The position numbers were made by a program, and so were the translations under genes. From Verrucomicrobiales bacterium (GTDB lineage Bacteria; Verrucomicrobiota; Verrucomicrobiia; Limisphaerales; UBA9464), in contig JAIXXC010000180.1 of NCBI GenBank assembly GCA_027490985.1, forward strand, positions 11,174 through 75,173: DNA of 64,000 nucleotides, read 5' to 3'. The first letter of the stretch is position 1; every line of letters starts with the position of its first letter. Positions 10,492 to 50,538 of the stretch are shown here, one piece after another. The notes beneath the pieces are model-generated. The model ran no database searches. It was not told the origin of the DNA and saw only the letters and a program-made list of their open reading frames with translations.

Positions 10492-10704
10492 CCCGCGGCT
10501 GCTTCTCGGGTATTCCTCGATCGAGTGTCGCCCGCTCTGATCGCCCACCGGTCCAGGCCGATCGGTTGGGAGGGCCCGAGATGACTGACGCCCCTGTCCT
10601 GAGGCGGATTCCCTGACACGGGTCACGATCCTGATGCGGTGGGTCGGGAGGGCTTTCCCTCTCCGCGCTTTCACCGTGGATCCGATCGGGGCAGGATTGC
10701 CGGC

Positions 10705-13413: not shown

Positions 13414-13464
13414 GCGTTGGAAAATGCATCTGCGGGACCTGTTCAAAAAAGTTCAAGACCCTGC

Positions 13465-13493
13465 TTGACCCGATTCGAGACTTTGAGCATAAC
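13465..13493 (+). promoter_or_regulatory. Candidate sigma70-type promoter for the PEP-CTERM gene
   Basis: 'TTGACC' (13465-13470), a 17-nt spacer, then 'CATAAC' (13488-13493). It lies in a locally AT-richer 144-bp gap about 65 nt upstream of ATG 13558. The -10 match is weak. Confidence 0.25.
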
Positions 13494-13557
13494 ACTTTCA
13501 AAAGGACGGGTCACAAAGAGGGCTCTCCTCCGTCATAACATCAACCATTATTTGACC

Positions 13558-14320: not shown

Positions 14321-14448
14321 CGTATTCCACGGGCCTCGTCGTACCGCGGATGCAGCTCCGGACACCGTGGCGGCGCGAGTGGCCGAGGGTTTGGTGAGCC
14401 CTGCCAGAAGGATTGGACAGGCGGCTTGCTGTGGACTTTGATCTGGGG

Positions 14449-16566: not shown

Positions 16567-16643
16567 GGTGCCGAATTGCGGACTGGGTTTGTGGTCGCCG
16601 CACGGTCATCCTCGGGCGCGTGAACACTCCGGGACGGGATTCC

Positions 16644-19709: not shown

Positions 19710-19746
19710 ATGTCCACCGATCCAGGGCGGTCCACCTCCTTTTCCC

Positions 19747-25411: not shown

Positions 25412-25894
25412 ATGGCCGCCGTGAAATGGGTTCCTGAAACTGTTGGGCCGATCCGGCCACTTCGGCGGCTCCTCGTGGCGGTGCCACTGTTCGTGGTGCT
25501 GCCGGTATCGCTCTTCGTGCTTTCCGGGTGCGCCTCGTCTCCCGCGCTCGGAGGGGGCAAGAAACCCGTTCCCGGGGCTCCGAACACGGTCCCGCCCCAG
25601 TGGTTGCGGACCGAGTTGTACCTCGCAGCCGTGCCGACCCCGGACTGGGAGGCGTTTCTGGCCGAACGGGTCACTCCGCGGTTTCCCGGCGGCTTCACGG
25701 TGTTCGACGCCTATGGGCAGTGGCGCCCGCCCCAAGGGGAGATCCGGCGTCTGACGACCAAGGTGGTGGTCATCTTGCATCCGCCCACCCCGGAGGCCGA
25801 GACCGCCATCGAAGCCATCCGCAAGGAGTACTGCGAAGAGTTCCATCAGATCTCCGTTCTCCGGTCGACCACCCCGGCCCTGGTTTCATTCTAG
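25412..25894 (+). CDS. Lipoprotein, DUF3574-like
   Basis: ATG 25412. Lipobox 'FVLSGC'. 'TELYLAAV...WEAFLAERVTPRFPGGFTVFDAYGQW' resembles DUF3574, from memory. Confidence 0.65.
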   Translation: MAAVKWVPETVGPIRPLRRLLVAVPLFVVLPVSLFVLSGCASSPALGGGKKPVPGAPNTVPPQWLRTELYLAAVPTPDWEAFLAERVTPRFPGGFTVFDAYGQWRPPQGEIRRLTTKVVVILHPPTPEAETAIEAIRKEYCEEFHQISVLRSTTPALVSF

Positions 25895-35458: not shown

Positions 35459-35827
35459 ATGAACAAGGCCGCATTGTTTGACAAAATCGAGGGCGAGCAG
35501 TTCCGCAAGGAAGCCGCGAAATTCAACGTGGGCGACAGCGTCCGAGTGCACACCAAGGTCGTCGAGGGCGACAAGGAGCGCATCCAGATCTTCGCGGGAG
35601 TCGTGATCGGTGTCCGCGGCCGCGGATTGAACCAGACCTTCACCGTCCGCCGCATCAGCTACGGCGAGGGTGTCGAGCGCATCTTCCCGACCCACTCCCC
35701 GCGCGTGGAGAAGATCGAGGTCGAGCGTCAGGGCGCCGTGCGCCGCGCCAAGCTGACCTACCTGCGCGCCCGTATCGGCAAGGGTGCCATGGCGGTCAAG
35801 GAGAAGGACACGCTCCTCGCCGCTTGA
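35459..35827 (+). CDS. rplS: 50S ribosomal protein L19
   Basis: '[30 protein letters not shown]...[21 protein letters not shown]'. Confidence 0.97.
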
Positions 35828-36026: not shown

Positions 36027-36060
36027 AAGGCCCGACACCCGGTGTGTCGGGCCTTGTTGC
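36027..36060 (+). terminator. Candidate rho-independent terminator about 200 nt downstream of rplS
   Basis: 12-bp perfect stem 'AAGGCCCGACAC'/'GTGTCGGGCCTT', 5-nt loop 'CCGGT', then 'GTTGCG' (a poor U-tract). Confidence 0.5.
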
Positions 36061-36221: not shown

Positions 36222-37583
36222 GTGCTCACTCTCTTGGGACCCAACTCCTCCACCAGCGGATTCTGCGACGGTGTTTCGCGCCGCAGTTTTCTGCGCATCG
36301 GGGCGCTGGGAATGGGCGGGTTGGCTCTGCCGGGATTGCTTCGCGCCGAGTCGGCCGCAGGACTCCGCTCGGCGGGCCGTTCCCACAAGGCGGTCATCCT
36401 GATTTTCCTGCCCGGTGGCCCCAGTCACCAGGACATGTTCGACCTCAAGGTCGATGCGCCGGCCGAGATCCGGGGTGAGTTCAACCCCATCGCCACCTCG
36501 GTTCCGGGTCTGCAGATCTGTGAACACCTGCCGCGCATGGCCCGGGTGATGGACCAGTGCACGGTGATCCGGTCCATGGTGGGCATGGAAGACCGGCACG
36601 AGTCGTTCCAAACCTATACGGGGCGCCTGAACCGCAACCAGCCCCCGGGAGGCTGGCCGGCCATGGGGGCGCTCTTGGCCAAGCTTCAGGGGTCGGCCGA
36701 TCCGGCCATTCCCGCGTCCATCGGGTTGGCTCCCAAGATGGGCCATGTTCCCTGGTCCGACAACGGCGTGGCCGGGTATCTCGGGGCGGCCTACGCCCCG
36801 TTCGAGATCAACAAGGGTGGGGGCAAAGACGACATGGTCCTCAACGGCATCACGCTCGATCGGTTGTCCGATCGCCGGGCGCTGCTGGGAGCTCTCGACG
36901 GGTTCCGCCGCGAGGTCGATGCCAGTGGTCAGGTGGCCGGTTCCGATGCGTACACCCAGCAGGCGTTCGGGATCCTGACCTCCAGCAAGCTGATGACGGC
37001 TCTGGATCTCAAGAACGAGGATCCCAAGGTGGTTGCGCGTTATGGTCGGGGAGACGCGAAGAACCGGGACGACGGAGCCCCGAAGCTCATGGAGCACTTT
37101 CTGGCGGCCCGACGCCTGGTGGAGGCCGGCGCCCGCTGTGTGACCCTGGCTTTCAGTCGCTGGGATCATCATGGCGACAATTTCGGGGCTCTGCGCCAAG
37201 ACCTGCCGCTGCTGGACCAGGGATTGAGCGCGCTCATCACCGACCTCAAGGAGCGGGGTCTCGATCGCGACGTCTCGGTGCTGGTGGCCGGTGAATTCGG
37301 TCGAACCCCCACCATCAACAAAGACGGAGGTCGCGACCACTGGCCGCGCGTGGGCTTCGCCCTCATGGCCGGCGGGGGCCTCCGTCATGGTCAGGTGATC
37401 GGTTCCACCGACCGTCTGGGGGGCGAAGCCGACTCCCGGCCCACCACCTTCGGCGAGGTCCACGCGACCCTGTATCACGCTCTGGGATTGGACGTGAACA
37501 AGGTGACCGTCCCCGACTTGACCGGGCGTCCCCAATTCCTGGTCGATCCCGGAGTCCAGCCCATGAAGGAACTGGTGGGATGA
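36222..37583 (+). CDS. DUF1501 protein (sulfatase/alkaline-phosphatase fold), TAT signal - paralog 1
   Basis: GTG 36222. 'FCDGVSRRSFLRIGALG' (twin-arginine motif), 'LPGGPSHQDMFDLK', 'GEFGRTPTINKDGGRDHWP'. 453 aa. Confidence 0.9.
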   Translation: MLTLLGPNSSTSGFCDGVSRRSFLRIGALGMGGLALPGLLRAESAAGLRSAGRSHKAVILIFLPGGPSHQDMFDLKVDAPAEIRGEFNPIATSVPGLQICEHLPRMARVMDQCTVIRSMVGMEDRHESFQTYTGRLNRNQPPGGWPAMGALLAKLQGSADPAIPASIGLAPKMGHVPWSDNGVAGYLGAAYAPFEINKGGGKDDMVLNGITLDRLSDRRALLGALDGFRREVDASGQVAGSDAYTQQAFGILTSSKLMTALDLKNEDPKVVARYGRGDAKNRDDGAPKLMEHFLAARRLVEAGARCVTLAFSRWDHHGDNFGALRQDLPLLDQGLSALITDLKERGLDRDVSVLVAGEFGRTPTINKDGGRDHWPRVGFALMAGGGLRHGQVIGSTDRLGGEADSRPTTFGEVHATLYHALGLDVNKVTVPDLTGRPQFLVDPGVQPMKELVG

Positions 37584-37656
37584 CCCAGTGCCTCCCCGAT
37601 GACGGCTCCGAGTTTTCCCGTGAACACGACGGTGATGCCCCGACGTCTGCCTAGCC

Positions 37657-39012
37657 ATGTTGACCCTATCCGGACCTTCCAGCCGTTTTTGTGACGGCCT
37701 TTCCCGCCGGAGTTTCCTCCGGATCGGCGGCTTGGGGCTGGGCGGCCTGGGCGGGTTTTCCGGCCTCGCTCTGCCGGAGTTGTTGCGCGCCGAGGCGGCC
37801 TCCGGGATGAAGTCCAACCACAAGGCCGTGATCATGGTGTACCTGCCGGGCGGCCCGCCCCATCAGGACACCTTCGACCTCAAGATGGACGCGCCGGCGG
37901 AGATTCGGGGCGAATTCCGACCGATCCCCACCACAGTGCCCGGGTTCCAGGTCTGTGAGCACCTGCCGCTCCTGGCCAAGCAGGCCCATCGCTATGCCGT
38001 GATCCGGTCCATCAGCGACGCCATCGACGATCATTCCGATTTCATGTGTCAGACCGGACGGCGCAAGGCGAGTCAGCCGCCCGGGGGCTGGCCCACGTTC
38101 GGAGCGACCGTTTCCCGCGTGATGGGGCCGGCGTCCGCGGCGGTTCCGGCGTTCGTCGGGCTCGAGCCGCGCATGCAGCACCGCCCCTACAACGCCGCCA
38201 CCGCGGGGTATGCGGGGGTCTCCCACGATGCCTTCCGCCCGGCGGCCGATGCCAAGTCCGACATGGTGCTCAATGGCATCACCACCGACCGCCTCTCCGA
38301 TCGTCGTGCGCTGCTGGCCTCCTTCGACCGCTTCCGGCGTGAAGTCGACGCCAGCGGACTCATGGCCGGTGTCGATGGTTTCAATCAGCAGGCCTTCGGA
38401 ATGCTCACCTCCAGCCGCCTGCTGGAGGCGCTCAACGTCGAGAAGGAGTCGGCCGCCCTCCGTGAGCGGTACGGCAAGGGTGATCCCAAGGTGCATGGCG
38501 ATGCGGCTCCCATGCTCAATGAGCAGTTCCTGATCGCCCGTCGACTGGTCGAGGCCGGTGCCCGGTTCGTGACCGTGGCCTACGGGTTCTGGGACTACCA
38601 CGGCAACAATTTCGGCAATGCCCGGAACGACCTGCCGCTGTTGGATCAGGCGCTCAGCGCGTTGATCGCCGACCTGCATGACCGGGGGCTCCAGAACGAC
38701 GTCAGCGTGATCGCCTGGGGAGAATTCGGCCGTTCACCGACGATCAACAAGGATGGCGGTCGTGACCATTGGCCTCGGGCCAACTGTGCGCTCCTGGCCG
38801 GCGGGGGCATGAAGGTGGGGCAGGTGATCGGCGCGACCGATCGCCTCGGAGGCGAGCCCAGCGAACGCCCCGTACAGTTCGGCGAGGTGTTCGCCACGCT
38901 CTACCAGAACCTGGGCATCGACGTGAACAAGACGACCCTGCCCGACCTCACCGGCCGGCCGCAGTTCCTGGTCCCCGATGGGTGCCAGCCCATGCGGGAG
39001 TTGGTCGGTTGA
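37657..39012 (+). CDS. DUF1501 protein, TAT signal - paralog 2
   Basis: ATG 37657. 'FCDGLSRRSFLRIGGLG', 'LPGGPPHQDTFDLK', 'GEFGRSPTINKDGGRDHWP'. It aligns end to end with the upstream paralog (both end '...DLTGRPQFLV..G.QPM.ELVG'). Confidence 0.9.
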   Translation: MLTLSGPSSRFCDGLSRRSFLRIGGLGLGGLGGFSGLALPELLRAEAASGMKSNHKAVIMVYLPGGPPHQDTFDLKMDAPAEIRGEFRPIPTTVPGFQVCEHLPLLAKQAHRYAVIRSISDAIDDHSDFMCQTGRRKASQPPGGWPTFGATVSRVMGPASAAVPAFVGLEPRMQHRPYNAATAGYAGVSHDAFRPAADAKSDMVLNGITTDRLSDRRALLASFDRFRREVDASGLMAGVDGFNQQAFGMLTSSRLLEALNVEKESAALRERYGKGDPKVHGDAAPMLNEQFLIARRLVEAGARFVTVAYGFWDYHGNNFGNARNDLPLLDQALSALIADLHDRGLQNDVSVIAWGEFGRSPTINKDGGRDHWPRANCALLAGGGMKVGQVIGATDRLGGEPSERPVQFGEVFATLYQNLGIDVNKTTLPDLTGRPQFLVPDGCQPMRELVG

Positions 39013-39025
39013 CGCAGACACCCCC

Positions 39026-41614
39026 ATGCACATCGCTCCGGAATCCATGAACCCCGAACGGATGAACCTCGGACCCCGCTCCCCCCGATCCGGGTGGCCC
39101 GGCATTCCCGGTAGGGTCGGCCTTCTCGGGATGTTCGGCCGTCTGTGCGCGATGATCCTCTGCACCGCGGTGGGCGGCATCGGATCAATCCGGGCCGGCT
39201 CGCTCGAACTGCACTACCGATCGGGGGCCCGCGAAGTGACTCTCGACTCTCAGGATGCCCGACAGCAGTTGCTGGCCACCCTGGATGGGTCGCGCGATGT
39301 GACCCGTGAGGTGACTTGGACCTCCGAGCCCGCGGGCATCGTTCGCCTCGATGCCTCGGGACGGGTGATCCCGGTGGCCGATGGCCAGGCGGTGATCACC
39401 GCCAAGGCCCGCGACGGATCCACCGCGCGCATTCCGGTGCGGGTCGTCCATGCCGGGCAACCGGCTCCGCTGCACTTCGCCAACCAGATCGTGCCCATCT
39501 TCACCAAGAACGGCTGCAACGGTGGTGGGTGCCATGGCAAGGCGGCCGGACAAAACGGGTTCCGCCTCTCGTTGCTCGGGTTCGAACCCGACGAGGATTA
39601 CGAGCATCTGGTCCGCGAGGCTCGCGGGCGGCGTCTCTTTCCGGCCGATCCGCCCCGATCGATGTTGGTGACCAAAGGAACGGCCGAGTTGCCGCATGGC
39701 GGGGGCAAGCGTCTGGAGATCGGTTCCGACGACTACCGGCGTTTGGTCCGTTGGATCGCTCAGGGAATGCCCGTGGGCAAGACCAACGCCCCCACGGTCG
39801 AGCGTGTGGAGGTGTTCCCGTCGGTCCGGACCCTGGCCCTCAACGGGGAACAGCAGTTGGTGGTGAGCGCCCATTATTCCGACGGATCCACCGAAGACGT
39901 CACGCGCAGCGCGCTCTTCGAGCCCAACGACAAGGACATGGCCGCATCCGATGCCAACGGCCTGCTCAAGGTCTTCAACCAGCCCGGCGAGTTCGCGGTC
40001 ATGGTCCGCTATCAGGGCAAGGTGGCGACCTTCCGGGCGACCATCCCGCTGGGAGCCCCGGTGGACCACTTGCCGCCGGTGCGGAACTTCGTCGACGAGT
40101 GGGTCTTCAAGCAACTCAAGCAGGTGGGGATGCCTCCGAGCGCGCTCACCGACAAGCCGACCTTCCTCCGGCGGGTGACGCTCGACATCGCGGGGCGCTT
40201 GCCCACTCCCGACGAGGTCCGGGCCTTCGAATCCGACACGGCCCCGGGTGATCGTGACCGTGTCATCGACCGCCTCGTGGCCTCCACCGACTACGCCGAC
40301 TACTTCGCCGGCAAGTGGTCGGCGCTCTTGCGCAACAAGCGGAGCGAACCGAAGCAGGCCCGGGGTACCCTGGCTTTCCATGCCTGGGTCCGCGACAGTC
40401 TGGCTGAAAACAAGCCGTATGACCGGTTTGTTCGCGAGGTGCTCACGGCCTCGGGCGATGTTTCCGAAAACCCTCCGGTGGCCTGGTATCGTCAGGTCCG
40501 GACCGTCCAGACCCAGTTGGAGGACGTGTCGCAATTGTTCCTCGGCCAGCGGATGCAGTGCGCCCAGTGCCACCACCATCCGTATGAAAAGTGGAGTCAG
40601 GCCGATTACTGGAGCTTCGGGGCGGCTTTTTCACAGGTGTCCTACAAGCCCGGAACCCAACCCGGCGAAGACGTCATCGTCCATCGACGCGGGGAGGCCA
40701 AAGCGACCAACAAGAAAAACGGTCAGGCCGTGAAGCCCGCGGCCCTCGGGCAGCCCGCCTTCGATCTGGCCGTCGATGACGACCCGCGGGTGTTCCTGGC
40801 CGATTGGATGACCTCGCCCAAGAACCCGTGGTTCGCCAAGGCGCTGGTCAACCGCTACTGGAAACACTTCTTCGGTCGGGGTCTGGTGGATCCCGAAGAC
40901 GACATGCGGGACACCAATCCCCCGAGCAATCCGGAGTTGCTCGAGGCGTTGGCCGCCCACTTCGTCGCCAGCGGCTTCGACCTGAAAGACCTGGTGCGCA
41001 CACTGACCCGCAGCACGACCTACCAGTTGAGTGCCGAGCCCAACGCCCACAACGCCAAGGATCGTCACCACTTCTCCCGCTTCTACCCGCGCCGACTTCC
41101 CGCCGAGGTGTTGTTGGATTCGGTGAACACCCTGACCGGCGGGCGCAGTCAGTTCGACGGCCTTCCGGTGGGCACCCGGGCCGTGTGTCTCCCGGACAAC
41201 AGCTTCAACGCCCAGAGCTATTTCCTGACGGTGTTCGGACGCCCCGAAGGCAGCAGTGCCTGCGAGTGCGAACGGAGCATGGAGGCCTCGCTCAGTCAGA
41301 GCCTGCACCTGCTCAACTCGAAGGACATCCAGACTCGGCTCAGTTCCGACGATTCCCGTCCGGCCCGGCTGAATGGCGACTCCCGCCCCGATGAGGCCAA
41401 GCTCGGCGAGTTGTATCATCTGGCCTACGCGCGTTCCCCCTCGTCCGATGAACTCCGACGGGCCACCGAGTATTTGTCGCGCAAGGTTTCGTCGGTGAAA
41501 CCGGGCAAGGATGCCGCCGAGACCAAGGCCTTGAAGGCCAAAGCCCGGCGGGAAGCCTGGGAGGACCTGACCTGGGCTCTCCTGAACACCAAGGAATTCC
41601 TCTTCAACCACTGA
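39026..41614 (+). CDS. Big_2 + PSCyt2 (DUF1549) + PSD1 (DUF1553) protein
   Basis: ATG 39026 (later ATGs at 39047 and 39062 possible). Big_2-like 'VTWTSEPAGIVRLDASGRVIPVADGQAVITAKA'. PSCyt2 'IVPIFTKNGCNGGGCHGKAAGQNGFRLSL' and 'CAQCHHHPYEKW'. PSD1 'FGRPEGSSACECERS'. Confidence 0.9.
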   Translation: MHIAPESMNPERMNLGPRSPRSGWPGIPGRVGLLGMFGRLCAMILCTAVGGIGSIRAGSLELHYRSGAREVTLDSQDARQQLLATLDGSRDVTREVTWTSEPAGIVRLDASGRVIPVADGQAVITAKARDGSTARIPVRVVHAGQPAPLHFANQIVPIFTKNGCNGGGCHGKAAGQNGFRLSLLGFEPDEDYEHLVREARGRRLFPADPPRSMLVTKGTAELPHGGGKRLEIGSDDYRRLVRWIAQGMPVGKTNAPTVERVEVFPSVRTLALNGEQQLVVSAHYSDGSTEDVTRSALFEPNDKDMAASDANGLLKVFNQPGEFAVMVRYQGKVATFRATIPLGAPVDHLPPVRNFVDEWVFKQLKQVGMPPSALTDKPTFLRRVTLDIAGRLPTPDEVRAFESDTAPGDRDRVIDRLVASTDYADYFAGKWSALLRNKRSEPKQARGTLAFHAWVRDSLAENKPYDRFVREVLTASGDVSENPPVAWYRQVRTVQTQLEDVSQLFLGQRMQCAQCHHHPYEKWSQADYWSFGAAFSQVSYKPGTQPGEDVIVHRRGEAKATNKKNGQAVKPAALGQPAFDLAVDDDPRVFLADWMTSPKNPWFAKALVNRYWKHFFGRGLVDPEDDMRDTNPPSNPELLEALAAHFVASGFDLKDLVRTLTRSTTYQLSAEPNAHNAKDRHHFSRFYPRRLPAEVLLDSVNTLTGGRSQFDGLPVGTRAVCLPDNSFNAQSYFLTVFGRPEGSSACECERSMEASLSQSLHLLNSKDIQTRLSSDDSRPARLNGDSRPDEAKLGELYHLAYARSPSSDELRRATEYLSRKVSSVKPGKDAAETKALKAKARREAWEDLTWALLNTKEFLFNH

Positions 41615-41617
41615 GGC

Positions 41618-43945
41618 ATGATCCGGATCGCGTCGGGATGCTGGATCACAGCGGGATGGCTGGGCGTGGCGACGCTCTGCGCGCAGTTGCCCGTGCCCCG
41701 GCTCCATGCGGTGTTTCCGCCGGGGGGTGCCGCCGGATCCACCGTCGAAGTCACCGTGACCGGGTCGGACCTGGACGAGGCCACCGGCCTCGTGTTCTCC
41801 GATCCCCGGATCGTCGGCACCCCGGTGCCCGGATCTTCCGACCGGTTCCGGGTTCCGTTGCCGGCCGGGATGTCCGGAGAGCAACTCGACCTCCGGGTCC
41901 AGGGGCGCCATGGGGTCTCGAATCCGAGGGCGTTTTCGGTCGGTCCGGCCGCACGGGAACTCCAATGGACCCAACCCCCGCTCACGCCGGCCCAAGCCTT
42001 CGATCTCCCCCTCGAGGCCGTGGTCAATGGCCGCATGGGCGCCCAGGAAGTGCTCTGGTTTCGCGTTGAGGGCGAGGCGGGGCAGGCTCTGGGAGCGCAC
42101 ATCGAAGCCCGCGAACTGGATTCGCGATTGGTGCCCGACTGGGCGCTGATCGATGCCTCGGGCGCCGAACTCACCCGCGTGCGGCGTCGGGAGTGGTTCG
42201 AGTTCAAGCTGCCGGCCAAGGGTGTCTACCTCCTGAAATTGAACGACTCCCTGTACCGGGGCGGTGACACGCATGGGTTTCGGCTGGTGCTCACCGCGCG
42301 TCCACGGGTCGCGTTCGCCGTGCCGCCGGTGTTGCAGGCCGGCCGTTCCCAACGGGTGACTCTCTATGGTCGACGATTGCCGGGCGGTCATCCGTCGTCG
42401 GTGCCCGGCGCCGACGGAGAACCGCTCGAGCAGCGCGATCTGGAGATCACGGCTCCGACCGAGCCGGGTCCGGTGTCGGCGACGGTGGGGTTGCTCGGCC
42501 AACCCTCGGCATTCCCGTTGGCCCAGGAGGCCTGGGCGTGGCGTGGTTCGGAGGGGGTGTCCCCCCTCACCCCGGTGCTGTTCGCCCTGACCCCCTTTTC
42601 CGTGATCACCGGCGCCCCCACGGGGTTGGTTTCAGTGACGCCGCCGTGCGATTTCTCGAGCCTGTTCCCGGCCCGGGGTCGGTGGAGTGGGGTCACTTTC
42701 GAGGCGAAGCAAGGCCAGGTGTTCTGGGTGGAACTCGTTTCCGAGCGTTGGGGACATCCGGTGGATCCCATGGCGATCGTGCAACGGGCCAAGACACCCG
42801 AGGCCGCCGCAGAGGGGGCGGGCTGGGTCGATGTCTTGGAATTGGGGGATACCGAACAGAATCTGGGGGATCGCGAGTTTCCGACGGCCCACCGCGATGC
42901 CGCCGCCCGGTTGGAGATTCCCGAGACGGGGCGATACCGGATCGTCGTTCGCGACGGGTTCCGCCGGGGTGAAGCCGTGGCGCGTTATCCCTATCGCCTG
43001 AGCCTGCGTCCGGAGACTCCCGAGTTCCACTTGGCCGTCTTCCCCATGCCCCCGGCCCGTGTGGGCGAGGATCGCGCGCTTCCGGTGCTGCCATCGGTGG
43101 TCCGCCGGGATCAGACGGTGGCTTTTCGTGTGGTGGCCTTCCGACGGGATGGTTTCCAGGGCGAGATCGAGTTGTCGGCCATCGATTTGCCTCCGGGAGT
43201 GCGGGCGTCCGCCACCCGGATCCCATCGGGGCAGAACACCGGGGTGCTGTTGCTGACCGCTTCGGCCGAGGCCTCGGGCACGGGCTCCTGGCACGTGGTG
43301 GGCAAGGCGGCCGTGGGCTCGGTGGTCCAGACCCGCAAGGCCTCGCCCGCGTCGTTGGTGTGGCCCGTCGCCGATTACAACACCGAGAGCCCGGTGGTCC
43401 GGCGTTCCCGCAGTGGCGCGGTCGCCGTGGTGACCCAGGAGTCGGCCCCGGTGACGATCCGAGTCGGAACCGCGACCTCCTCTGCCGACGGAGCCACTTG
43501 GAAACTGCCATTGACCATCGAACGGCGCGGGGAATTCCAGGGCGCTTTCACGGTGAAGGCGGCCGGACAGTCCGCCCTGGACAAGGCCAAGGAGATCAGT
43601 GTCCCGGAAAAGGCCACCCATCTCGTGGCGGAGTTGTCATTGGGCGATGCGCGTTTGCCCTCGGGGACCCACACTCTGTGGTTGCAGGGCAGTGTCACCG
43701 GCAAATACCGACAGTCTCCCGAGGCGTTGGTGGCCGCCGAGGCCGAGTTGAAGGAGGCCGAGAAGGCGTTGTCGTCGGCCAAGCCCGAGGGCAAGGCCGC
43801 GGCGGAGACCCGCAAGAAGGAAGCCGAAGCACGTCGCAAATCGGCCGAAGAAAAGGCCAAACCCCGTGACCTGACCTTGGCCCTCTGGTCCGAGCCGTTC
43901 ACCGTGACAGTGGGTGCCACCGCCAAGCCGGAGGCCAAGCCGTGA
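41618..43945 (+). CDS. Secreted hypothetical multi-beta-sandwich protein (TIG/PPC-like modules) with K/E-rich C-terminal segment
   Basis: ATG 41618, 3 nt after the upstream stop. Signal peptide 'MIRIASGCWITAGWLGVATLCAQ'. Two PPC-like modules ('VLWFRVEGEAGQALGAHIEA...GVYLLKLND', 'VFWVELVSE...GRYRIVVRD'). Charged helix 'AEAELKEAEKALSSAKPEGKAAAETRKKEAEARRKSAEEKAK' (about 43715-43870). Confidence 0.8.
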   Translation: MIRIASGCWITAGWLGVATLCAQLPVPRLHAVFPPGGAAGSTVEVTVTGSDLDEATGLVFSDPRIVGTPVPGSSDRFRVPLPAGMSGEQLDLRVQGRHGVSNPRAFSVGPAARELQWTQPPLTPAQAFDLPLEAVVNGRMGAQEVLWFRVEGEAGQALGAHIEARELDSRLVPDWALIDASGAELTRVRRREWFEFKLPAKGVYLLKLNDSLYRGGDTHGFRLVLTARPRVAFAVPPVLQAGRSQRVTLYGRRLPGGHPSSVPGADGEPLEQRDLEITAPTEPGPVSATVGLLGQPSAFPLAQEAWAWRGSEGVSPLTPVLFALTPFSVITGAPTGLVSVTPPCDFSSLFPARGRWSGVTFEAKQGQVFWVELVSERWGHPVDPMAIVQRAKTPEAAAEGAGWVDVLELGDTEQNLGDREFPTAHRDAAARLEIPETGRYRIVVRDGFRRGEAVARYPYRLSLRPETPEFHLAVFPMPPARVGEDRALPVLPSVVRRDQTVAFRVVAFRRDGFQGEIELSAIDLPPGVRASATRIPSGQNTGVLLLTASAEASGTGSWHVVGKAAVGSVVQTRKASPASLVWPVADYNTESPVVRRSRSGAVAVVTQESAPVTIRVGTATSSADGATWKLPLTIERRGEFQGAFTVKAAGQSALDKAKEISVPEKATHLVAELSLGDARLPSGTHTLWLQGSVTGKYRQSPEALVAAEAELKEAEKALSSAKPEGKAAAETRKKEAEARRKSAEEKAKPRDLTLALWSEPFTVTVGATAKPEAKP

Positions 43946-46941
43946 GCCGTTCCTCTGGATCGGGCATCGGATGGTGGGTCGCCTGGGTGTTCACCCTGGG
44001 GATCGTCTGGCCGGATTCCGGTCTGGCCGCCGTCCGACCGCTTTCCATCCAGAAAGAAGCCGGTGGCACCAATGCCGTCGTCGGTTTCCAGAAGGACATC
44101 CTGCCGATGTTCCAGGCCAACTGCCTGCCGTGCCACAACCAGACCCGGGCCAAGGCCGGCTTGAATCTGGAGACTCCCGCCGCGCTGCTGCGAGGGGGCG
44201 ATACCGGTCCCGGTGCGGTGCCCGGAAAACCCGCCGAGAGCCTGGTGCTCAAGTCGGCGGCCCATCAGGTGGAGGATCTGGTGATGCCGCCCGCGGGCAA
44301 CAAGTCCAATGCCCGTGATCTGACACCCGAGGAACTGGGGGTTCTGTGGCGCTGGATCGAGCAGGGGGCCAAGGCCGACCGGGCGGTGGTCGTCGAACCG
44401 GCTTGGAAACCGATTTCCCCCGAATGGAACGCCAGTTTCGCCGTGGCCCTCGATTCGGAGGGAGCGACCGTCGCGGTGGCACGGGCCAATCGGGTCAGCG
44501 TCATCGAACTGGCCACGGGCAAGACCATCGGCCGTCTGGAAGACCCCGCCCTGAACGGGGCCAGTCAGCGGGATGTGGTCGGCGCCATGGCCTTCAGCCC
44601 CGATGATCAGTGGTTGGCCACCGCGGGGTTCCGTGAGGTGCGTCTGTGGCAGCGTCGTCCGGTCACGGTCGAGCCCCGGGTTGCGAGTGCTCCCAAGGCT
44701 CCTTGGGTGGCGGCAGCGTTCTCGCCCGAGGGCACCGCGCTGGCGACCGTGAACGCCTCCGGAATCCTCGAGATCCGCTCCGATCCGCTGACAGGAGTGC
44801 TCGGGACGTGGTCCCTCAAGGGCAATGCCCCGGTCGCCTCGTCTTCAGCGGTCCGTCTGACGTGGTCTCCGGATGGCCGGTGGTTGTCGGTCGTGTCGGG
44901 GCGTGATGCGTGGAGCGTGTCCCGGATGAAACCCGGGCCGTCGCTTTCGAAGGTGCGGGTGCTGCCGGCCGAACCGACCGGAGTGGGATGGATGCCCGGA
45001 GGCGACTCGTGGGTGATCACCTATGGTTCCAGCCATGCGCCTCAGCGGTGGCGGCAAACAGCGGAGGGATCCGAGCCCGGGCCCGGGGCGTTGGAAGACA
45101 TTCCGGAGATTCCGGCCGATTCCCGAGTGCTGAAGACCGAGGCCGCGACGAAGGGTTCGCTGTGGTTGTCCGGGGCCTCCGGAGGGTTGGTGACCTGGCC
45201 CCAGGGTCCGCAGGGGCTCTTGCGCGGTGCGGGTCCGGTGCGTTCACTGCTTTGGGATCGTTCAGGGTCCAACGGGGTCGTGGTGTTGTCGACCGGGGGC
45301 GCGCAGACCCTTTCTCGGACTCTGTCCCAGACCCAGTCCCTCACTCTGGCCGGCGACCCGCGGTTGTCGTTGGAGGCGTTGCGAGAAGAGGCCGAGCTGG
45401 GTCGGAGTCGATTGGAATTGGCCCTGGCCGGCACGCGGATCGGCGAAGCCAGGTCGGCCGTGACCCAGGCCCAGACGGCGCTGACCAAGGCGCGCGAGAA
45501 GCGGGATCTGGCGGCCAAGACACTCACGGAACGCGAGAAAGAGTGGTCGGCCCAGAACGCGCTCGCGGTGACCGCCACCCGCGATCGGGATTCGGCCGCC
45601 AGCGAATTGACCCGCATCCAGTCCGAGGCCAAGGCGGCCGGCGAAGAGCTCCAAAAGGCCCTGACCGCGGCCAAGGCGACGCCGGAGGCCGCGTTGAAGT
45701 CCCTGGATGACGTGGCGGCCAAGGCCGAATCGGCGGGGCGGCGCAAAGCGGCCCTGGAGCGGGCCGAAGCCGAGATCCCCCCGCGGCGCAAGAAGGCGGA
45801 GGAGCAGTTGGCCGAGGCCCAGAAGAAGGCCGGAGAGCTCAAGGGGCCGCTCGACAAGGCCCGCATCGCGGCCGAGGGCGCTGACCAGGATGTGGTCCTG
45901 GCCGAGAAGACGGTCGCCGATGCCAACGCTTCGGTGGCGACCGCGCAGGCCGAGGAACAGGCGGCCCAGGGTCGGATCGCCCGCTCCGAAACCCGCCTCA
46001 AGACCGTTCAAGCCGAGCGGGATCGGTCGAAGACCCGCCCCTTCGAGGTGGCGGCGTTGTCGCCCTCGGGAGACTCGCTGATCACGGTCGGCGCCGACGG
46101 ATTGTGGACCCGGTGGCATCCGGGCACCGGTCGGGCCTCGGCTCCGTTCGCGGTCGGGCAGGGGATGCCACTGGCCCTCGTGGCCTTGAACGACGAGGAA
46201 TTTCTGGCCGCGTTCCCCGAGGGGGTGAGTCGCATCCAGACCGCCCGCCCGTGGTTCCTCCGGCAGACTCTGGCGGGAAGTGCGACCGCACCGGCCTTCG
46301 CCGATCGCATCAATGCCCTGGCCTTCAGTCCCGATGGTTCGTTGCTGGCCACGGGCGGGGGGGAACCCTCGCGCTCCGGAGAACTCAAGCTGTGGAAGCT
46401 GCCCGAAGGCACGCTGGCCCACGATCTGGGTGCCGTGCACAGCGATGCCGTCACGGCCGTGGCGTTTTCACCGCGGGGTGAGCGGATCGCCAGCGCCGGG
46501 GCCGATCGGTTCGCACGGATCACTCCGCTCCAGACTCCGGCCGCACGACTTCATCTCGAGGGGCATACCCATCATGTGATCGCCGTGGCCTGGGCGCCCG
46601 ACGGCAGTGTCCTGGCGACCGGGGGAGCGGAGGGGATGGTCAAGCTGTGGAATCCGCGCACCGGGGAACGTCGCAAGAACATCGAGGGATTCGGCAAGGA
46701 GGTGACCGGGCTGCAGCCGGCGGGAGGCCTGCTTCGATTCGTGGCCGTGAGCGGCTCGGGCAAGGGGCGCGTGTTCAAATCCGATGGCGAGACCGTTCGA
46801 GACCTGGCCACCGTGCCCGAGTATCTCCAGGCGCTGTCGGTCAGCCGGGACGGCCGCTGGGTCGTGGGAGCCGACGACCGCGGTATCGTGCGGCTTTGGG
46901 ATGCCGAATCCGGTCAATTGCGCCGCACTTGGGAGCCTTGA
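43942..46941 (+). CDS. PSCyt1 (CxxCH) - WD40 - long coiled coil - WD40 protein
   Basis: GTG 43942 overlaps the upstream stop (GTGA). 'ILPMFQANCLPCHNQTRAKAGLNLET...GGDTGPGAVPGKPAESLV' is PSCyt1. WD40-like blades on both sides ('AFSPDDQWLATAG', 'AFSPDGSLLATGGGE', 'AWAPDGSVLATGGAEGMVKLWN'). An A/E/K/R-rich heptad-like region of about 220 aa spans about 45364-46032. Confidence 0.85.
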   Translation: MSRSSGSGIGWWVAWVFTLGIVWPDSGLAAVRPLSIQKEAGGTNAVVGFQKDILPMFQANCLPCHNQTRAKAGLNLETPAALLRGGDTGPGAVPGKPAESLVLKSAAHQVEDLVMPPAGNKSNARDLTPEELGVLWRWIEQGAKADRAVVVEPAWKPISPEWNASFAVALDSEGATVAVARANRVSVIELATGKTIGRLEDPALNGASQRDVVGAMAFSPDDQWLATAGFREVRLWQRRPVTVEPRVASAPKAPWVAAAFSPEGTALATVNASGILEIRSDPLTGVLGTWSLKGNAPVASSSAVRLTWSPDGRWLSVVSGRDAWSVSRMKPGPSLSKVRVLPAEPTGVGWMPGGDSWVITYGSSHAPQRWRQTAEGSEPGPGALEDIPEIPADSRVLKTEAATKGSLWLSGASGGLVTWPQGPQGLLRGAGPVRSLLWDRSGSNGVVVLSTGGAQTLSRTLSQTQSLTLAGDPRLSLEALREEAELGRSRLELALAGTRIGEARSAVTQAQTALTKAREKRDLAAKTLTEREKEWSAQNALAVTATRDRDSAASELTRIQSEAKAAGEELQKALTAAKATPEAALKSLDDVAAKAESAGRRKAALERAEAEIPPRRKKAEEQLAEAQKKAGELKGPLDKARIAAEGADQDVVLAEKTVADANASVATAQAEEQAAQGRIARSETRLKTVQAERDRSKTRPFEVAALSPSGDSLITVGADGLWTRWHPGTGRASAPFAVGQGMPLALVALNDEEFLAAFPEGVSRIQTARPWFLRQTLAGSATAPAFADRINALAFSPDGSLLATGGGEPSRSGELKLWKLPEGTLAHDLGAVHSDAVTAVAFSPRGERIASAGADRFARITPLQTPAARLHLEGHTHHVIAVAWAPDGSVLATGGAEGMVKLWNPRTGERRKNIEGFGKEVTGLQPAGGLLRFVAVSGSGKGRVFKSDGETVRDLATVPEYLQALSVSRDGRWVVGADDRGIVRLWDAESGQLRRTWEP

Positions 46942-47060: not shown

Positions 47061-47828
47061 ATGTACCTCGCCGAACTCACTTCGCCGCAGTTGGCCGCCT
47101 TGCCGCGCGAGACCCCCATCGTCTTTCCCATCGCCGCGCTCGAGCAGCACGGAGGTCATCTGCCGGTGCTCACCGACACCCGGTTGGTGGGCGAGGTGGT
47201 GCGTCGGACCGAGTCGGCCCTGGCCCGGGAGGCGGTGTTCGCACCGGTGCTCTGGCTCGGCAACTCCGATCATCACCTCGATTTCCCCGGCACCCTGTCG
47301 GCCCCGCCCCGGCCTTACCTCGACCTGCTCGTGGGGTTGGCCGAGAACGTCGTGCGGCACGGATTCAAGCGGGTGGTCTTCCTGAACGGTCATGGTGGCA
47401 ACGACGTTCCGGGGCGACAGGCCGTCTTCGAATTGAGACAGCGACACCGGGACGCCGACGGATTGCTGCTGCTCTTGGCCACCTATTGGAGCCTGGGTGG
47501 CAAACCCTTCGAACGGCCGGTGGCCGGCGGGTGGGTGCAACAGGAGATGGGCCATGCCTGCGAGTGGGAGACCTCGATGATGCTGCGACTCGATCCCGGT
47601 CAGGTGCAGCCCTTCGCCTCGCTGGATCCGGTGGATGCCACGCCGCCGTTTCATCCGGCCCATCGGGGCTGGGTCACCCGGGAACGCACCCCCACCGGTC
47701 ATATCGGTCATCCGGCGGCGGCCTCGGCCGAGAAGGGGGAGGTGCTCTTCGAGGTGTTCTCCCAGGATGCGATCCGGTTGCTGGAGCGGGTCCGCCGCTG
47801 GGATGGTGTCTCCTGGTCCGAACAATGA
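47061..47828 (+). CDS. Creatininase-family amidohydrolase
   Basis: 'FPIAALEQHGGHLPVLTD' and 'VVFLNGHGGN' are typical metal-binding motifs of the creatininase/MftE family. 255 aa. Confidence 0.85.
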   Translation: MYLAELTSPQLAALPRETPIVFPIAALEQHGGHLPVLTDTRLVGEVVRRTESALAREAVFAPVLWLGNSDHHLDFPGTLSAPPRPYLDLLVGLAENVVRHGFKRVVFLNGHGGNDVPGRQAVFELRQRHRDADGLLLLLATYWSLGGKPFERPVAGGWVQQEMGHACEWETSMMLRLDPGQVQPFASLDPVDATPPFHPAHRGWVTRERTPTGHIGHPAAASAEKGEVLFEVFSQDAIRLLERVRRWDGVSWSEQ

Positions 47829-47834
47829 GAGACC

Positions 47835-49100
47835 ATGATCGCCCCGACTCCATCCGGTTCGCGCGGTGCCGCCTGGAAATGGTCGGTGTGCGGGATGTTG
47901 TTGCTGGCTTCGGCCATCAACTACATGGATCGGCAGACCCTTTCCGGACTGTCGGTGCGGATCACCCAGGAGTTCGGCATGACCAAGACCCAATATGGTC
48001 AGGTCGAGGCGGTTTTCGGCTACGCCTTCGCTGCGGGATCGGTGCTCTTCGGTTGGATGGCCGACCGCTTCCCCGTGCATCGGGTCTATGCCGCGGTGCT
48101 GGCGTTGTGGTCGCTGGCCGGGATGGCGACGGGATGGGCCCAGGATCATCAGGGATTGCTGCTGTTCCGTGGGCTGCTGGGGTTTTTCGAGGCCGGGCAT
48201 TGGCCGTGTGCCGTCCGCATCACCCGATCGCTGCTCGATGAACGTCAGCGCTCGATGGGCAACGGGCTGCTCCAGAGTGGAGCCACGTTCGGGGCCATCA
48301 TCACCCCGCTGGTGTTGCCCCTGTTGCTGGGCGTCGGAACGGCCGGTGGGGCAGGGGCTTGGCGGCCTCCGTTCTATCTGCTGGGGGGAGTGGGGCTGTT
48401 GTGGCTCATCCCCTGGTTCCTGATGGTCCGTTCGGGCGACCTGCGCTCGGGAGCCGAATCGGTGGCGGCTGCAGGCCCTGCGGCGCCCCCCTTCCTGAAA
48501 GTGCTCTTCAGCGGTCGGATGCTGGCGGTCATCCTGGTGGTCGCCTGCATCAACACGACGTGGCAAGTCCTGCGGGCCTGGCTGCCGATGTTCCTGCAAA
48601 AAGGACGAGGTTACACCGAGATCGAGGCCCTCCGATTCAACTCGGCCTTCTTCGCCGCGGCCGATGTGGGATGTCTGGCCGCCGGGGCCTTGGCGGTGGC
48701 CCTGGCTCGCCGGGGGCGCACTCCGTCAGGGGCCCGGTTCCAGGTGTTCCTCGGCTGCGCCTTGCTCTGCTGTGGCACGGTGGCGATCCCGTCGCTCGGT
48801 CGTGGTCCGGGGCTCATGATCGTGCTCTTGGCCATCGCGGCCGGAGCCCTGGGGGTGTTCCCGCTCTATCACACCTTCACCCAGGATCTCTCCGAACATC
48901 ATCAGGGCAAGATCACCGGCGCAGCCGGAGTCGCGGCCTGGATTCTGCCGGCCCAGGCCCAGTGGCTCTTCGGCCTCTCCGCCGATCGGTTGGGGACCAT
49001 GGATCCCGGTCTGGTGGTGGCCGGGCTCCTACCGCTGCTGGCCTTGCCCCCCCTGTGGTACCTTCATCGCATCAAGATCCGGATCCCCATCACCCCATGA
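47835..49100 (+). CDS. MFS transporter (anion:cation symporter/hexuronate-like)
   Basis: About 12 TM helices. 'ASAINYMDRQTLS', 'GWMADRF', 'FRGLLGFFEAGHWP'. Starts 6 nt after the creatininase stop. Confidence 0.88.
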   Translation: MIAPTPSGSRGAAWKWSVCGMLLLASAINYMDRQTLSGLSVRITQEFGMTKTQYGQVEAVFGYAFAAGSVLFGWMADRFPVHRVYAAVLALWSLAGMATGWAQDHQGLLLFRGLLGFFEAGHWPCAVRITRSLLDERQRSMGNGLLQSGATFGAIITPLVLPLLLGVGTAGGAGAWRPPFYLLGGVGLLWLIPWFLMVRSGDLRSGAESVAAAGPAAPPFLKVLFSGRMLAVILVVACINTTWQVLRAWLPMFLQKGRGYTEIEALRFNSAFFAAADVGCLAAGALAVALARRGRTPSGARFQVFLGCALLCCGTVAIPSLGRGPGLMIVLLAIAAGALGVFPLYHTFTQDLSEHHQGKITGAAGVAAWILPAQAQWLFGLSADRLGTMDPGLVVAGLLPLLALPPLWYLHRIKIRIPITP

Positions 49101-50374
49101 ATGCCTCCGTTTCCCGCCGACAGTTCCTCGCCACCGCAGGGGCCACGGCCGCAGTGACCGGGCTTGCGCCCTCGATCTGGGCTTCCAAGATCGCCGGACC
49201 GGCCCGCAAGAAAATCGCCCTGATCGCGACGGAAGTCCGCCTGCATTCGCACGCCCAGCATTTCATCGATCGGTTCCTTCTGGGCTACGTGTGGGAAGGC
49301 GGGTGGCGTCGGCCCGAGGTGGATCTGGTCTCATTGTATGTCGATCAGTTTCCCGAGAACGATCTGGCCCGGGCCACCGCGGCCCGTCATGGCGTTCCGA
49401 TTCATACAAGCATCGCCGAGGCATTGACCTTGGGCACGGGTCGTTTGGCGGTCGATGGGGTGGTCATCATCGGTGAGCACGGCCGCTATCCGAAAAACGA
49501 CAAGGGGCAAACGCTCTATCCTCGTCACCGGTTCTTCAAGGAGGTGGTGCGCGTGTTCGAGAGCTCGGGGCGGAGTGTGCCCGTGTTCAACGACAAGCAT
49601 CTCTCCACCGACTGGCGCGAATGCGTGGAGATGGTGGAGGACGCCCGGCGCCTCGGGTTTCCGTTCCAGGCGGGCTCGTCGCTCCCGGTCACCAAACGCA
49701 TGCCGCCCACGGAAATGCCGCTGGGCACCCCGCTCTCGGAGAGCCTGTGTGCCGCCTACGGAGGGCTCGACAGCTACGACATCCACGGTCTGGAGACCGC
49801 ACAGTGCATGTCGGAGCGGCGCAAGGGGGGCGAGGTGGGGATCCGTCGGGTCCACGGACTCCGGGGTGCCGCCTTCTGGGAAGAACTCGGTCGGCGAGAC
49901 TCGACTCGGCGGTTGCTGGAGGCGGCGTTGTGCCGCAGTCACAATCTGCCGGTGCGGGAGGGCTATCCCACGGCCCCGGTGAGCCTGGCCTGGGCCCGGG
50001 AGGTGTTTCCGGACGCCTGGGGCTACTTCATCGACCACCGCGACGGGTTCCGCACGACCCTGGCCATGCTGGGCATCCGTGACTTCAACTACGCGGGGCT
50101 GGATTCCAAGACAGGTCGGATCATCTCCTGCCAGATGTACCTGCCGATGCCGACGCACGGATCGTCGACGGCCGACTTCTTCAATCCGCAGATCCGTCAT
50201 ATCGAACGCATGGTCGTGGAGCGTCGCCAGCCTTATCCGTTGGAGCGCACCTTGTTGACCTCCGGAATGACCCTGGCCGGGGTGGAATCCCTCCATCGCG
50301 GACAACCCGTCGAGACACCGGAGATGGCCGTCCGGTACTCGGTGGGTGAGGCCTCATTGTTCTGGAGAGACTGA
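49097..50374 (+). CDS. TAT-signal hypothetical protein (possible Gfo/Idh/MocA-like fold, unassigned)
   Basis: ATG 49097 overlaps the MFS stop (ATGA). 'MNASVSRRQFLATAGATAAVTG' is a twin-arginine signal. 'KKIALIATEVRLHSHAQHFIDRF'. 425 aa. The track ORF start at 48359 is an out-of-context extension. Confidence 0.8.
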   Translation: MNASVSRRQFLATAGATAAVTGLAPSIWASKIAGPARKKIALIATEVRLHSHAQHFIDRFLLGYVWEGGWRRPEVDLVSLYVDQFPENDLARATAARHGVPIHTSIAEALTLGTGRLAVDGVVIIGEHGRYPKNDKGQTLYPRHRFFKEVVRVFESSGRSVPVFNDKHLSTDWRECVEMVEDARRLGFPFQAGSSLPVTKRMPPTEMPLGTPLSESLCAAYGGLDSYDIHGLETAQCMSERRKGGEVGIRRVHGLRGAAFWEELGRRDSTRRLLEAALCRSHNLPVREGYPTAPVSLAWAREVFPDAWGYFIDHRDGFRTTLAMLGIRDFNYAGLDSKTGRIISCQMYLPMPTHGSSTADFFNPQIRHIERMVVERRQPYPLERTLLTSGMTLAGVESLHRGQPVETPEMAVRYSVGEASLFWRD

Positions 50375-50538
50375 GCGACGGTTCCGGGGCTGACTTCGGT
50401 CTCCGATCTGTCACTCTTTTGTCACCTCGACCTGGATTTTGCACGGAAGCTGCTAGGCGGCAGCGGTCCCCTGTCGAATCATCGCTGTGGGCGTTCTCCG
50501 TGGGGAGGATGCGGGGCAGCGGTCGGGGGTCTCCTATC

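Follow-up and report, generated by a model that had tools for sequence, protein, structure and literature searches.

What do five closely packed genes for apparently exported proteins do together in an uncultured verrucomicrobial bacterium? The genes in question, g1 to g5, occupy positions 36222-46941 (+ strand) of a 64,000-nucleotide (nt) stretch of DNA from a Verrucomicrobiales bacterium (assembly GCA_027490985.1, contig JAIXXC010000180.1), and it is this whole stretch that we call the window. The genes are separated by gaps of 73, 13, 3 and -4 nt, the g4/g5 junction being a GTGA overlap of 4 nt, and 119 nt lie between the g5 stop and the next ATG (47061). This is the arrangement of co-directional genes that an initial annotation of the window had described, and the coordinates of the open reading frames (ORFs) confirm it.

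The genes g1 (36222-37583, +, GTG start) and g2 (37657-39012, +) encode DUF1501 proteins of 453 and 451 amino acids (aa). They are followed by g3 (39026-41614, +), which encodes an exported 862-aa protein in which Pfam and hhalign together detect Big_2, PSCyt1-like, PSCyt2 and PSD1 domains; by g4 (41618-43945, +), for an exported 775-aa protein that we describe as a PPC-type/immunoglobulin (Ig)-like beta-sandwich protein after the Pfam matches of its homologs; and by g5 (43942-46941, +, GTG start), for an exported 999-aa protein with Pfam PSCyt1 and WD40 domains. The start of g3 is ambiguous: ATG 39026 is backed by N-terminal conservation in four relatives, and an alternative ATG at 39047 is used by one protein-database gene call. 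When describing gene orders, we write D for a DUF1501 gene, P for a PSCyt2/PSD1 gene (g3), B for a PPC-type gene (g4), and W for a WD40 gene (g5). All the families that had been assigned from the sequence by eye (DUF1501 twice, Big_2/PSCyt2/PSD1, and PSCyt1/WD40) are recovered by a profile hidden Markov model search with Pfam.

Comparison of protein types and gene order makes us highly confident that the locus is a copy, in a member of the Verrucomicrobiota, of the complex DUF1501 module known from Planctomycetes-Verrucomicrobia-Chlamydiae (PVC) bacteria. Kamneva et al. 2012 (Genome Biol Evol, PMC3542564) analyzed DUF1501 neighbourhoods across PVC genomes, and described a "most complex four-gene cluster" consisting of a DUF1501 protein, a PPC protein, a PSCyt1/Big_2/PSCyt2/PSD1 protein, and a PSCyt1/WD40 protein. 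In that description, the DUF1501 protein sometimes has a twin-arginine translocation (Tat) signal, and the PPC protein has a signal peptide and weak PPC domains. Conservation of the cluster across species was reported, along with a correlation with intracellular membranes; the authors proposed membrane targeting and electron transport. The present locus agrees with this description in all four protein types, in the Tat and signal-peptide features, and in the conserved clustering across species. Neighbouring relations within the module have been noted by others as well: PSCyt2 genes adjoin DUF1501 genes in freshwater Verrucomicrobia, where some PSCyt proteins have carbohydrate-binding modules and a carbohydrate role was suggested (He et al. 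2017), and in Planctomycetes DUF1501 genes often lie next to WD40 genes (Hu et al. 2017). Thus, the novelty that the initial annotation had implied does not hold, since both the architecture and the DUF1501-WD40 adjacency were already published; its interpretation was largely right, but not new, and the locus is a duplicated-DUF1501 variant of a module that comparative genomics has known since 2012.

The locus differs from the published module in having two diverged tandem DUF1501 paralogs (61% identical), each with orthologs across the order, and in the PSCyt1-like domain of g3, which sits between two Ig-like domains, carries C-x4-CH instead of CxxCH, and is detected by profile-profile comparison only. 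It also differs from the simple DUF1501-PSCyt2/PSD1 gene pairs, of which a planctomycetotal or verrucomicrobiotal genome can hold tens, and which share the two adjoining families and the Tat signal on DUF1501. Here the pair is joined to PPC and WD40 genes, and it is unusually conserved, with the g1 and g2 types at 70-95% across species.

Gene order and fusions among relatives

Taking one genome per species, we collected 80 loci, mostly from metagenome-assembled genomes (MAGs) titled Verrucomicrobia or Verrucomicrobiota, Limisphaerales, or Pedosphaera; the closest relatives of the window locus are MAGs named Limisphaerales or Pedosphaera. Gene orders were counted by tblastn with the five window proteins, using the 51 species-level loci that have at least 6 kb of upstream sequence. 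The full D(1-3)-P-B-W order is present in 38 of these 51 loci, with two DUF1501 genes in 20 loci, one in 12, and three in 6. Four loci have g3-g4-g5 and no DUF1501 gene, and nine have g4-g5 alone. The tightest core is this last PPC-WD40 pair: where the sequence extends beyond g4, 69 of 72 loci continue with a g5 homolog. The five-gene order recurs across species, and it is one variant among several. The two further large proteins are tied to the DUF1501/PSCyt2-PSD1 pair as had been claimed, and the 38 full-order loci, together with the two fusions described below, are the opposite of what one would see if those genes were unlinked in relatives.

Is this order more than chance? D-D-P-B-W is observed at g4 identities of 73%, 51% and 43%, and at 51% and 43% the flanks are unrelated. 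Because many species have the order while the genes around it differ, we take it to be above chance; the -4 and 3 nt junctions are also kept in relatives. The five proteins evolve at different rates. Among close relatives, identity is 90-95% for g1 and g2, about the level of trmD, 84-89% for g3, and 67-82% for g4 and g5. In more distant relatives, g1 and g2 remain at 85-88%, the creatininase and transporter genes found downstream of the locus are at 62-68%, and g4 and g5 at 42-46%, so that over the whole range (42-82%) g4 and g5 diverge fastest of the five.

Two fusion proteins join parts that are separate in the window. P0083 (1246 aa) has a PSCyt1+WD40 region, with homology to the N- and C-termini of g5, fused to a g4-like region, and on its own contig it is preceded, upstream, by genes for DUF1501 and PSCyt2/PSD1. 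A 1277-aa protein of locus L002, encoded on the opposite strand, has PSCyt1+WD40 fused to PSCyt2+PSD1. Between them, the two fusions connect the g5 type with both the g4 type and the g3 type; along with the conserved gene order, they are the best available evidence that the products of the cluster may act together.

A single transcript for the five genes would be compatible with the short gaps and with the lack of terminator-like sites above chance (they are below chance level). A sigma-70 promoter scan found no promoter. Base composition does not set the genes apart either, as the G+C content at third codon positions is 0.80-0.84 for g1-g5, like that of other genes in the window (about 0.8, with about 66% G+C for the window overall).

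Several loci carry additional or unexpected features. In L002 (14662-19975, -, on a contig shared with L023), the 1277-aa fusion is followed by a 491-aa protein with the precomputed family "UCP032817-like"; it is in the usual DUF1501 position, and tblastn with g1 and g2 gives no DUF1501 detection there. In L003 (15209-18718, +), a gene for a 1169-aa HEAT/AAA+ protein (nSTAND1, ClpB_D2-small) shares 4 nt with the end of the g5 ortholog, across its stop, which suggests a lineage-specific sixth gene in the unit. L006 (7224-12512, +) has a distant PSCyt2/PSD1-DUF1501-g4-like trio, with 23% g4 identity, followed by genes for a tyrosinase, a LodA-like protein (lysine-epsilon oxidase family), and a flavin adenine dinucleotide (FAD)-dependent oxidoreductase. 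The records L012, L022, L033, L034, L049, L058, L062, L068, L071 and L077 have other titles and are probably mislabelled bins; off titles of cluster-bearing MAG records include Akkermansia muciniphila, Bifidobacterium sp., Chitinophaga pinensis, and Kapaibacterium.

The five proteins

The DUF1501 assignments are strong, with Pfam E-values of 1.1e-85 for g1 (288.6 bits) and 1.2e-81 for g2 (275.3 bits; cut-off 27), and the 61% identity between the two paralogs extends over their full length. The twin-arginine signals and the tandem paralogy, both proposed initially, are borne out. The Tat motif is SRRSFLRIG in both proteins, at 36276-36302 (+) in g1 and at 37702-37728 (+) in g2, and RR-x-FL is invariant in the 38 aligned DUF1501 sequences. 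By inspection, the N-termini of g1 and g2 are glycine-rich, weakly hydrophobic segments of the Tat type, and g3, g4 and g5 have hydrophobic N-terminal segments of the Sec type; a signal-like segment can thus be read by eye on all five proteins, as the description of the five as exported proteins had it. We also observe that the region before the twin arginines, M-L-T-L..G-P...F-C-D-G-(V/L)-S-R-R, is common to both paralogs (36222-36302 and 37657-37728), with C15, D16 and G17 invariant in the 38 sequences. Such conservation is unusual, as the n-regions of signal peptides are normally variable.

The conserved motifs of g1 are GGPSHQDMFD (36414-36443), IRS (from 36567), WDHHG (37161-37175), and GRDHWP (37329-37346), all on the + strand. 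In g2, GGPPHQDTFD takes the place of GGPSHQDMFD, and the remaining conserved motifs are all kept. Could the change from GGPSH to GGPPH be the loss of a catalytic serine in g2? We reject this reading because the position varies (S, A or P) among g1-type and distant DUF1501 proteins, and because both paralogs retain all the other invariant residues. The g1-type and g2-type proteins form separate orthologous lineages, whose lineage-specific motifs are consistent across the orthologs in about 40 loci, and a third DUF1501 lineage is present in the three-copy loci. Some genomes retain only one paralog, which can be of either type; the idea of an obligate g1-g2 heterodimer is weakened by the 12 loci of this kind.

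For the fold of DUF1501, there is no solved relative in PDB sequence and profile searches, and the placement comes from a predicted structure. The AlphaFold2 model of g1 has a predicted local distance difference test score (pLDDT) of 63 and a predicted template-modelling score (pTM) of 0.72. A Foldseek search with this model gives 78 PDB matches at E<=1e-3, and all those listed are in the alkaline-phosphatase/sulfatase superfamily: LtaS, choline, carrageenan and aryl sulfatases, and PbgA, with E-values from 3e-5 to 4e-4 and probability about 1. A weak partial Pfam Phosphodiest match in g1 (E about 1e-3), spanning the D-x-x-H/beta-strand/D-H region, agrees with this placement. The model thus shows DUF1501 to have an alkaline-phosphatase/sulfatase-superfamily fold with an alpha/beta core. 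Candidate metal ligands and nucleophile are found among D71, D74, S118, H126, D315, H317, D372 and H373, which are invariant in both paralogs; distant DUF1501 proteins also keep H69, D74, H126, the histidine of W-D-x-H, EFGR, and most of the GRDH positions.

DUF1501 resembles the type I sulfatases, LtaS/PbgA/EptA, and NPP/ENPP enzymes of this superfamily in its core fold and in having conserved acidic and histidine residues, and differs in lacking the Pfam Sulfatase domain, the formylglycine motif, the membrane domain, and a significant sequence match to a solved structure. The initial description of g1 and g2 as sulfatase-fold enzymes is therefore right at the level of the superfamily, and the sulfatase signature is absent. 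The formylglycine motif C/SxPxR is found neither in g1 nor at the homologous position in g2, neither protein matches Pfam Sulfatase (PF00884), and hhalign finds nothing between the DUF1501 alignment and the window's own sulfatase, so we reject a formylglycine (type I) sulfatase as an identity for DUF1501. That sulfatase, a genuine type I enzyme with the CSPTR motif, also carries a fused GDSL lipase/acylhydrolase domain (10603-13413, +), and a PEP-CTERM protein gene (13414-14265, +) directly follows it.

The protein in the middle of the locus, g3, starts with its hydrophobic segment and continues with Big_2 (Ig-like), a PSCyt1-like domain, a second Ig-like domain, PSCyt2 (DUF1549), and PSD1 (DUF1553); the Pfam matches (E-values: Big_2 4e-7, PSCyt2 1.5e-47, PSD1 2e-46) all exceed their cut-offs. 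The motifs quoted initially for this and the other proteins are where they were said to be. The PSCyt1-like domain has GCNGGGCHG (39512-39538, +), which is a C-x4-CH arrangement, and PHGGG (39692-39706, +); at the end of PSCyt2 there is CAQCHHHPYEKW (40559-40594, +), and in PSD1 there is CECERS (41261-41278, +). Pfam, even at E<=10, sees no PSCyt1 in the C-x4-CH region. Aligning profiles with hhalign, on the other hand, g3 residues ~140-245 match the PSCyt1 of g5 over 94 columns with 88% probability and an E-value of 3e-6. By this profile comparison, the small helical domain of g3 is a diverged PSCyt1 domain, one with a two-residue insertion in CxxCH and PHGGG replacing MPP.

Across 55 g3 orthologs the mean column identity is 64%, and C-x4-CH, CAQCHHH and CECE are invariant. 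The AlphaFold2 model of g3 (pLDDT 78, pTM 0.79) begins with two Ig domains that have a small helical domain between them, and continues with a large helical region for PSCyt2/PSD1. Its confidence drops only at the invariant Cys/His motifs (C-x4-CH, PHG, CAQCHHHPYEKW, and CECERS), as expected if a cofactor were absent from the model. Foldseek with the model and PDB sequence and profile searches match the Ig domains only, and leave the helical PSCyt2/PSD1 core unmatched. PSCyt2 is weakly similar to di-haem cytochrome c peroxidase (CCP_MauG) at 25.0 bits, below the 25.6 cut-off.

The label of g4 as a beta-sandwich protein, given initially, is supported by PPC and Ig-like matches in its homologs; g4 itself has no Pfam or NCBIfam match and none in PDB sequence and profile searches, and no structure stands behind the label. 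(NCBIfam has no family for g1, g2 or g3 either.) PPC is matched by 12 of the 24 aligned g4 relatives (best E-value 1e-15), at about 144-210 and 376-454, and some relatives also match Qn_am_d_aIII at about 487-569. Reading these matches onto g4, the protein would have PPC-type and Ig-like domains and a short Lys/Glu/Ala-rich C-terminal stretch, after an N-terminal hydrophobic segment ending LCA|Q. The family is large and lacks a full-length Pfam model: a 24-member profile finds 4,562 representatives of 50%-identity clusters at E<=1e-30, many of them full-length. On this homology, g4 is the "PPC protein" of the published PVC module.

In g5, a hydrophobic N-terminus is followed by PSCyt1 (2e-14, 54.4 bits, cut-off 22), propeller-like repeats, a long coiled coil (about 490-700, with a weak SMC match), and a WD40 propeller (about 710-999; 1.7e-32, 110.9 bits, cut-off 27). 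PSCyt1 contains CLPCH (44122-44136, +) and MPP (44284-44292, +), and CL(P/A)CH and MPP are kept in 76 of 76 g5 orthologs. The spacing and invariance of CxxCH...MPP are typical of His/Met mono-haem class-I cytochromes c, and by its motifs the PSCyt1 domain of g5 looks like such a mono-haem cytochrome; among standard cytochrome c families there is only a weak Cytochrome_CBB3 match (E 0.025). As in the class-I cytochrome c-propeller fusions, such as the quinohaemoprotein dehydrogenases, a small CxxCH...M domain is placed on a large exported protein. Here, in contrast, the propeller is of the WD40 type with a long coiled-coil insertion, and not of the pyrroloquinoline quinone or glucose/sorbosone dehydrogenase (GSDH) type, and the cytochrome domain is N-terminal, with a putative haem.

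Other cytochrome c fusion proteins are encoded elsewhere in the window. A run of exported redox-type genes (14398-23603, +) includes a DsbD-like protein (DsbD_N/DsbD_TM/thioredoxin), a DUF7133-HEAT-cytochrome c protein, a family-less 796-aa protein, and a cytochrome c-GSDH (glucose/sorbosone dehydrogenase-like) protein. This run suggests that the organism makes exported c-type cytochrome fusion proteins, and we count it in favour of the haem reading of the locus.

A proposed working and its rivals

The explanation that we find best overall, and towards which we lean modestly, is that the locus encodes periplasmic Tat-exported metalloenzymes together with Sec-exported putative haem-c scaffold proteins. 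The two DUF1501 proteins would be alkaline-phosphatase/sulfatase-superfamily enzymes that fold, and probably acquire their metal, in the cytoplasm before Tat export. Judging by their N-terminal segments, g3, g4 and g5 would leave the cytoplasm unfolded through Sec, the route that makes periplasmic attachment of haem c possible; the motifs suggest that PSCyt1 of g5 and the diverged PSCyt1-like domain of g3, with its C-x4-CH and further Cys/His clusters, could bind it. We suppose that g4 and g5 form a scaffold pair, and that g3 is a dedicated partner docking one or both DUF1501 enzymes onto it. Gene linkage and the two fusion proteins point to this pairing and docking, and to an extracytoplasmic assembly as the result. 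That the products work together in such an assembly has, in our estimation, an even chance or slightly better; the multi-subunit machine of the initial annotation, like haem binding and a single transcript, is an inference. Catalysis would most likely be hydrolysis or transfer of a phospho- or sulfo-ester on a conserved, rather than variable, substrate, and the haem domains would give redox control or electron transfer. Catalysis and the haem role are the weakest step of the proposal, and we regard this chemistry as doubtful.

Several observations weigh against the explanation. No alkaline-phosphatase-superfamily enzyme is known to need a cytochrome partner. The g1 model is modest (pLDDT 63), with TM values of only about 0.3-0.37 to its Foldseek matches, and the alignments by which the metal ligands are mapped are not significant (Phosphodiest, E about 1e-3; ENPP6, E 0.7). 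Full-text literature searches found no experimental characterization of any of these families. The g4-g5 pair is found alone among unrelated housekeeping genes (in one locus inspected), and distant g4 relatives (23-34% identity) show P-B-W, P-D-B, or other partners, which means that the assembly may be modular and not obligate. Finally, a DUF1501 copy number between 0 and 3, with either paralog able to occur alone, argues against an obligate g1-g2 heterodimer.

What else could the locus be? In the electron-transfer proposal that Kamneva et al. 2012 (PMC3542564) put forward, the PSCyt proteins would be cytochromes associated with the membrane that carry electrons to or from specific protein or sugar acceptors, and DUF1501 would be a redox enzyme with a cofactor, exported by Tat. 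The invariance of CxxCH and MPP, the Tat export typical of cofactor-containing enzymes, the weak likeness of PSCyt2 to di-haem cytochrome c peroxidase (25.0 bits; cut-off 25.6), and the fact of a published proposal all speak for it. We nevertheless find it unlikely. The modelled fold would place DUF1501 in a superfamily that comprises hydrolases and transferases rather than oxidoreductases, none of the large proteins has more than one canonical haem site, and the neighbourhoods of three relatives show no conserved quinone- or flavin-binding or membrane-integral partner in the cluster. The Cys/His motifs may instead hold no haem, and form disulfides or a Zn, Cu or Fe site, so that the proteins carrying them would be structural or envelope partners of a DUF1501 transferase resembling LtaS, PbgA or EptA. 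LtaS and PbgA are indeed among the top Foldseek matches; g3 has C-x4-CH, and a His for the distal Met, where Pfam does not see PSCyt1; CAQCHHH and CECE could equally make a metal site; no match to standard cytochrome c families is significant; and the housekeeping-like conservation fits an envelope role. But C-x4-CH haem sites exist in cytochromes c3, the spacing and invariance of CxxCH...MPP in g5 are those of a class-I cytochrome c, and DUF1501 is a soluble Tat substrate without the membrane domain of LtaS, PbgA and EptA. The non-haem explanation keeps a minority share of our belief, as a tentative possibility.

A role in foraging for polysaccharides or organic esters, by analogy with polysaccharide utilization loci, would have the Ig, PPC and WD40 domains bind polymers from which DUF1501 removes sulfate or phosphate esters. 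This would suit the sulfatase-like fold, the much expanded DUF1501/PSCyt2-PSD1 pairs of saccharolytic PVC bacteria, and the carbohydrate-binding modules of some PSCyt proteins, for which a carbohydrate role was suggested (He et al. 2017). However, the C/SxPxR sulfatase signature is absent, g1-g3 show a housekeeping-like conservation (65-95% across species) unlike that of substrate-specialized foraging genes, and no carbohydrate-active enzyme (CAZyme), carbohydrate-binding module, TonB receptor or transporter is conserved across lineages in the cluster. We think foraging improbable; the high conservation of g1-g3, and the lack of a CAZyme or transporter as a conserved partner, tip the balance somewhat towards a role in housekeeping or in the envelope, on weak evidence. 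The genes could also be neighbours by descent only, co-regulated or merely adjacent, with no physical complex. The g4-g5 pair and the DUF1501-PSCyt2/PSD1 pair do each occur separately, copy number varies, and genes such as PDDEXK and PIN ORFs are occasionally inserted. Against mere adjacency, two independent domain fusions join the parts, and the order is kept with different flanks across deep divergence, as are the -4 and 3 nt junctions, all of which leaves it very unlikely in our view.

Surroundings and significance

Upstream of the locus, 3′ of an rplS-like ORF (35459-35827), there is a GC-rich hairpin at 36027-36060 (+) with a 13-bp stem and a folding energy of -30.1 kcal/mol (z -3.9); none of 200 shuffles folds equally well. 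The initial annotation had called it a hairpin terminator. The hairpin stands, but the terminator finds no support: there is no U-tract or T-run, and a terminator scan made no call there. It may mark the end of the upstream ribosomal-protein/trmD unit, whose rpsP-KH-(trmD)-rplS context is also found in L001. Rfam reports no RNA family in the window. ARAGORN predicts one tRNA-Ile(GAT) of 88 nt, long for this tRNA, at 25792-25879 (-), which may be a false positive because Rfam at its gathering threshold reports no tRNA there.

Downstream, 119 nt after g5, a creatininase-family gene (47061-47828, +) is followed by a major facilitator superfamily (MFS) transporter gene (47835-49100, +). Relatives have both genes at their g4 loci as well, even L024 and L031 with a g4 identity of only about 45%; adjacency of the two genes to g5 was checked in L001 only, and the pair is absent from L002 and L003. 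The pair may be a lineage-specific extension of the five-gene unit, or just synteny. Further on, a giant ORF of about 3,290 aa (50350-60231, +), syntenic in the close relative L001, encodes eight Lamin-tail (LTD) domains together with CotH kinase-like, PA14, He_PIG/Big_9, and DUF1349 domains.

Few protein families are as expanded in Planctomycetota and Verrucomicrobiota as DUF1501, DUF1549 (PSCyt2) and DUF1553 (PSD1), which are still without an assigned function more than 20 years after their description. The complex cluster is the most conserved form of their grouping. To the 2012 description we add counts of the forms that the cluster takes across 80 species-level genomes, two fusion proteins tying its components together, a hidden PSCyt1-like domain in g3, and a fold-level placement of DUF1501 that explicitly excludes a sulfatase mechanism. 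These results yield concrete constructs and mutants, not the function, and for such experiments a locus from an uncultured bacterium has no advantage over the orthologous clusters of PVC strains that can be cultivated.

In its most novel form, our proposal is of a redox-gated or redox-coupled ester transferase or hydrolase, in which the Tat-exported DUF1501 metalloenzymes would be obligatorily coupled, through a dedicated PSCyt2-PSD1 partner, to c-type haem domains on a PPC/WD40 coiled-coil scaffold, with distinct roles for the paralogs. We consider that form rather unlikely. If it were true, the module would be an uncharacterized periplasmic enzyme system with a housekeeping-like role in the PVC cell envelope.

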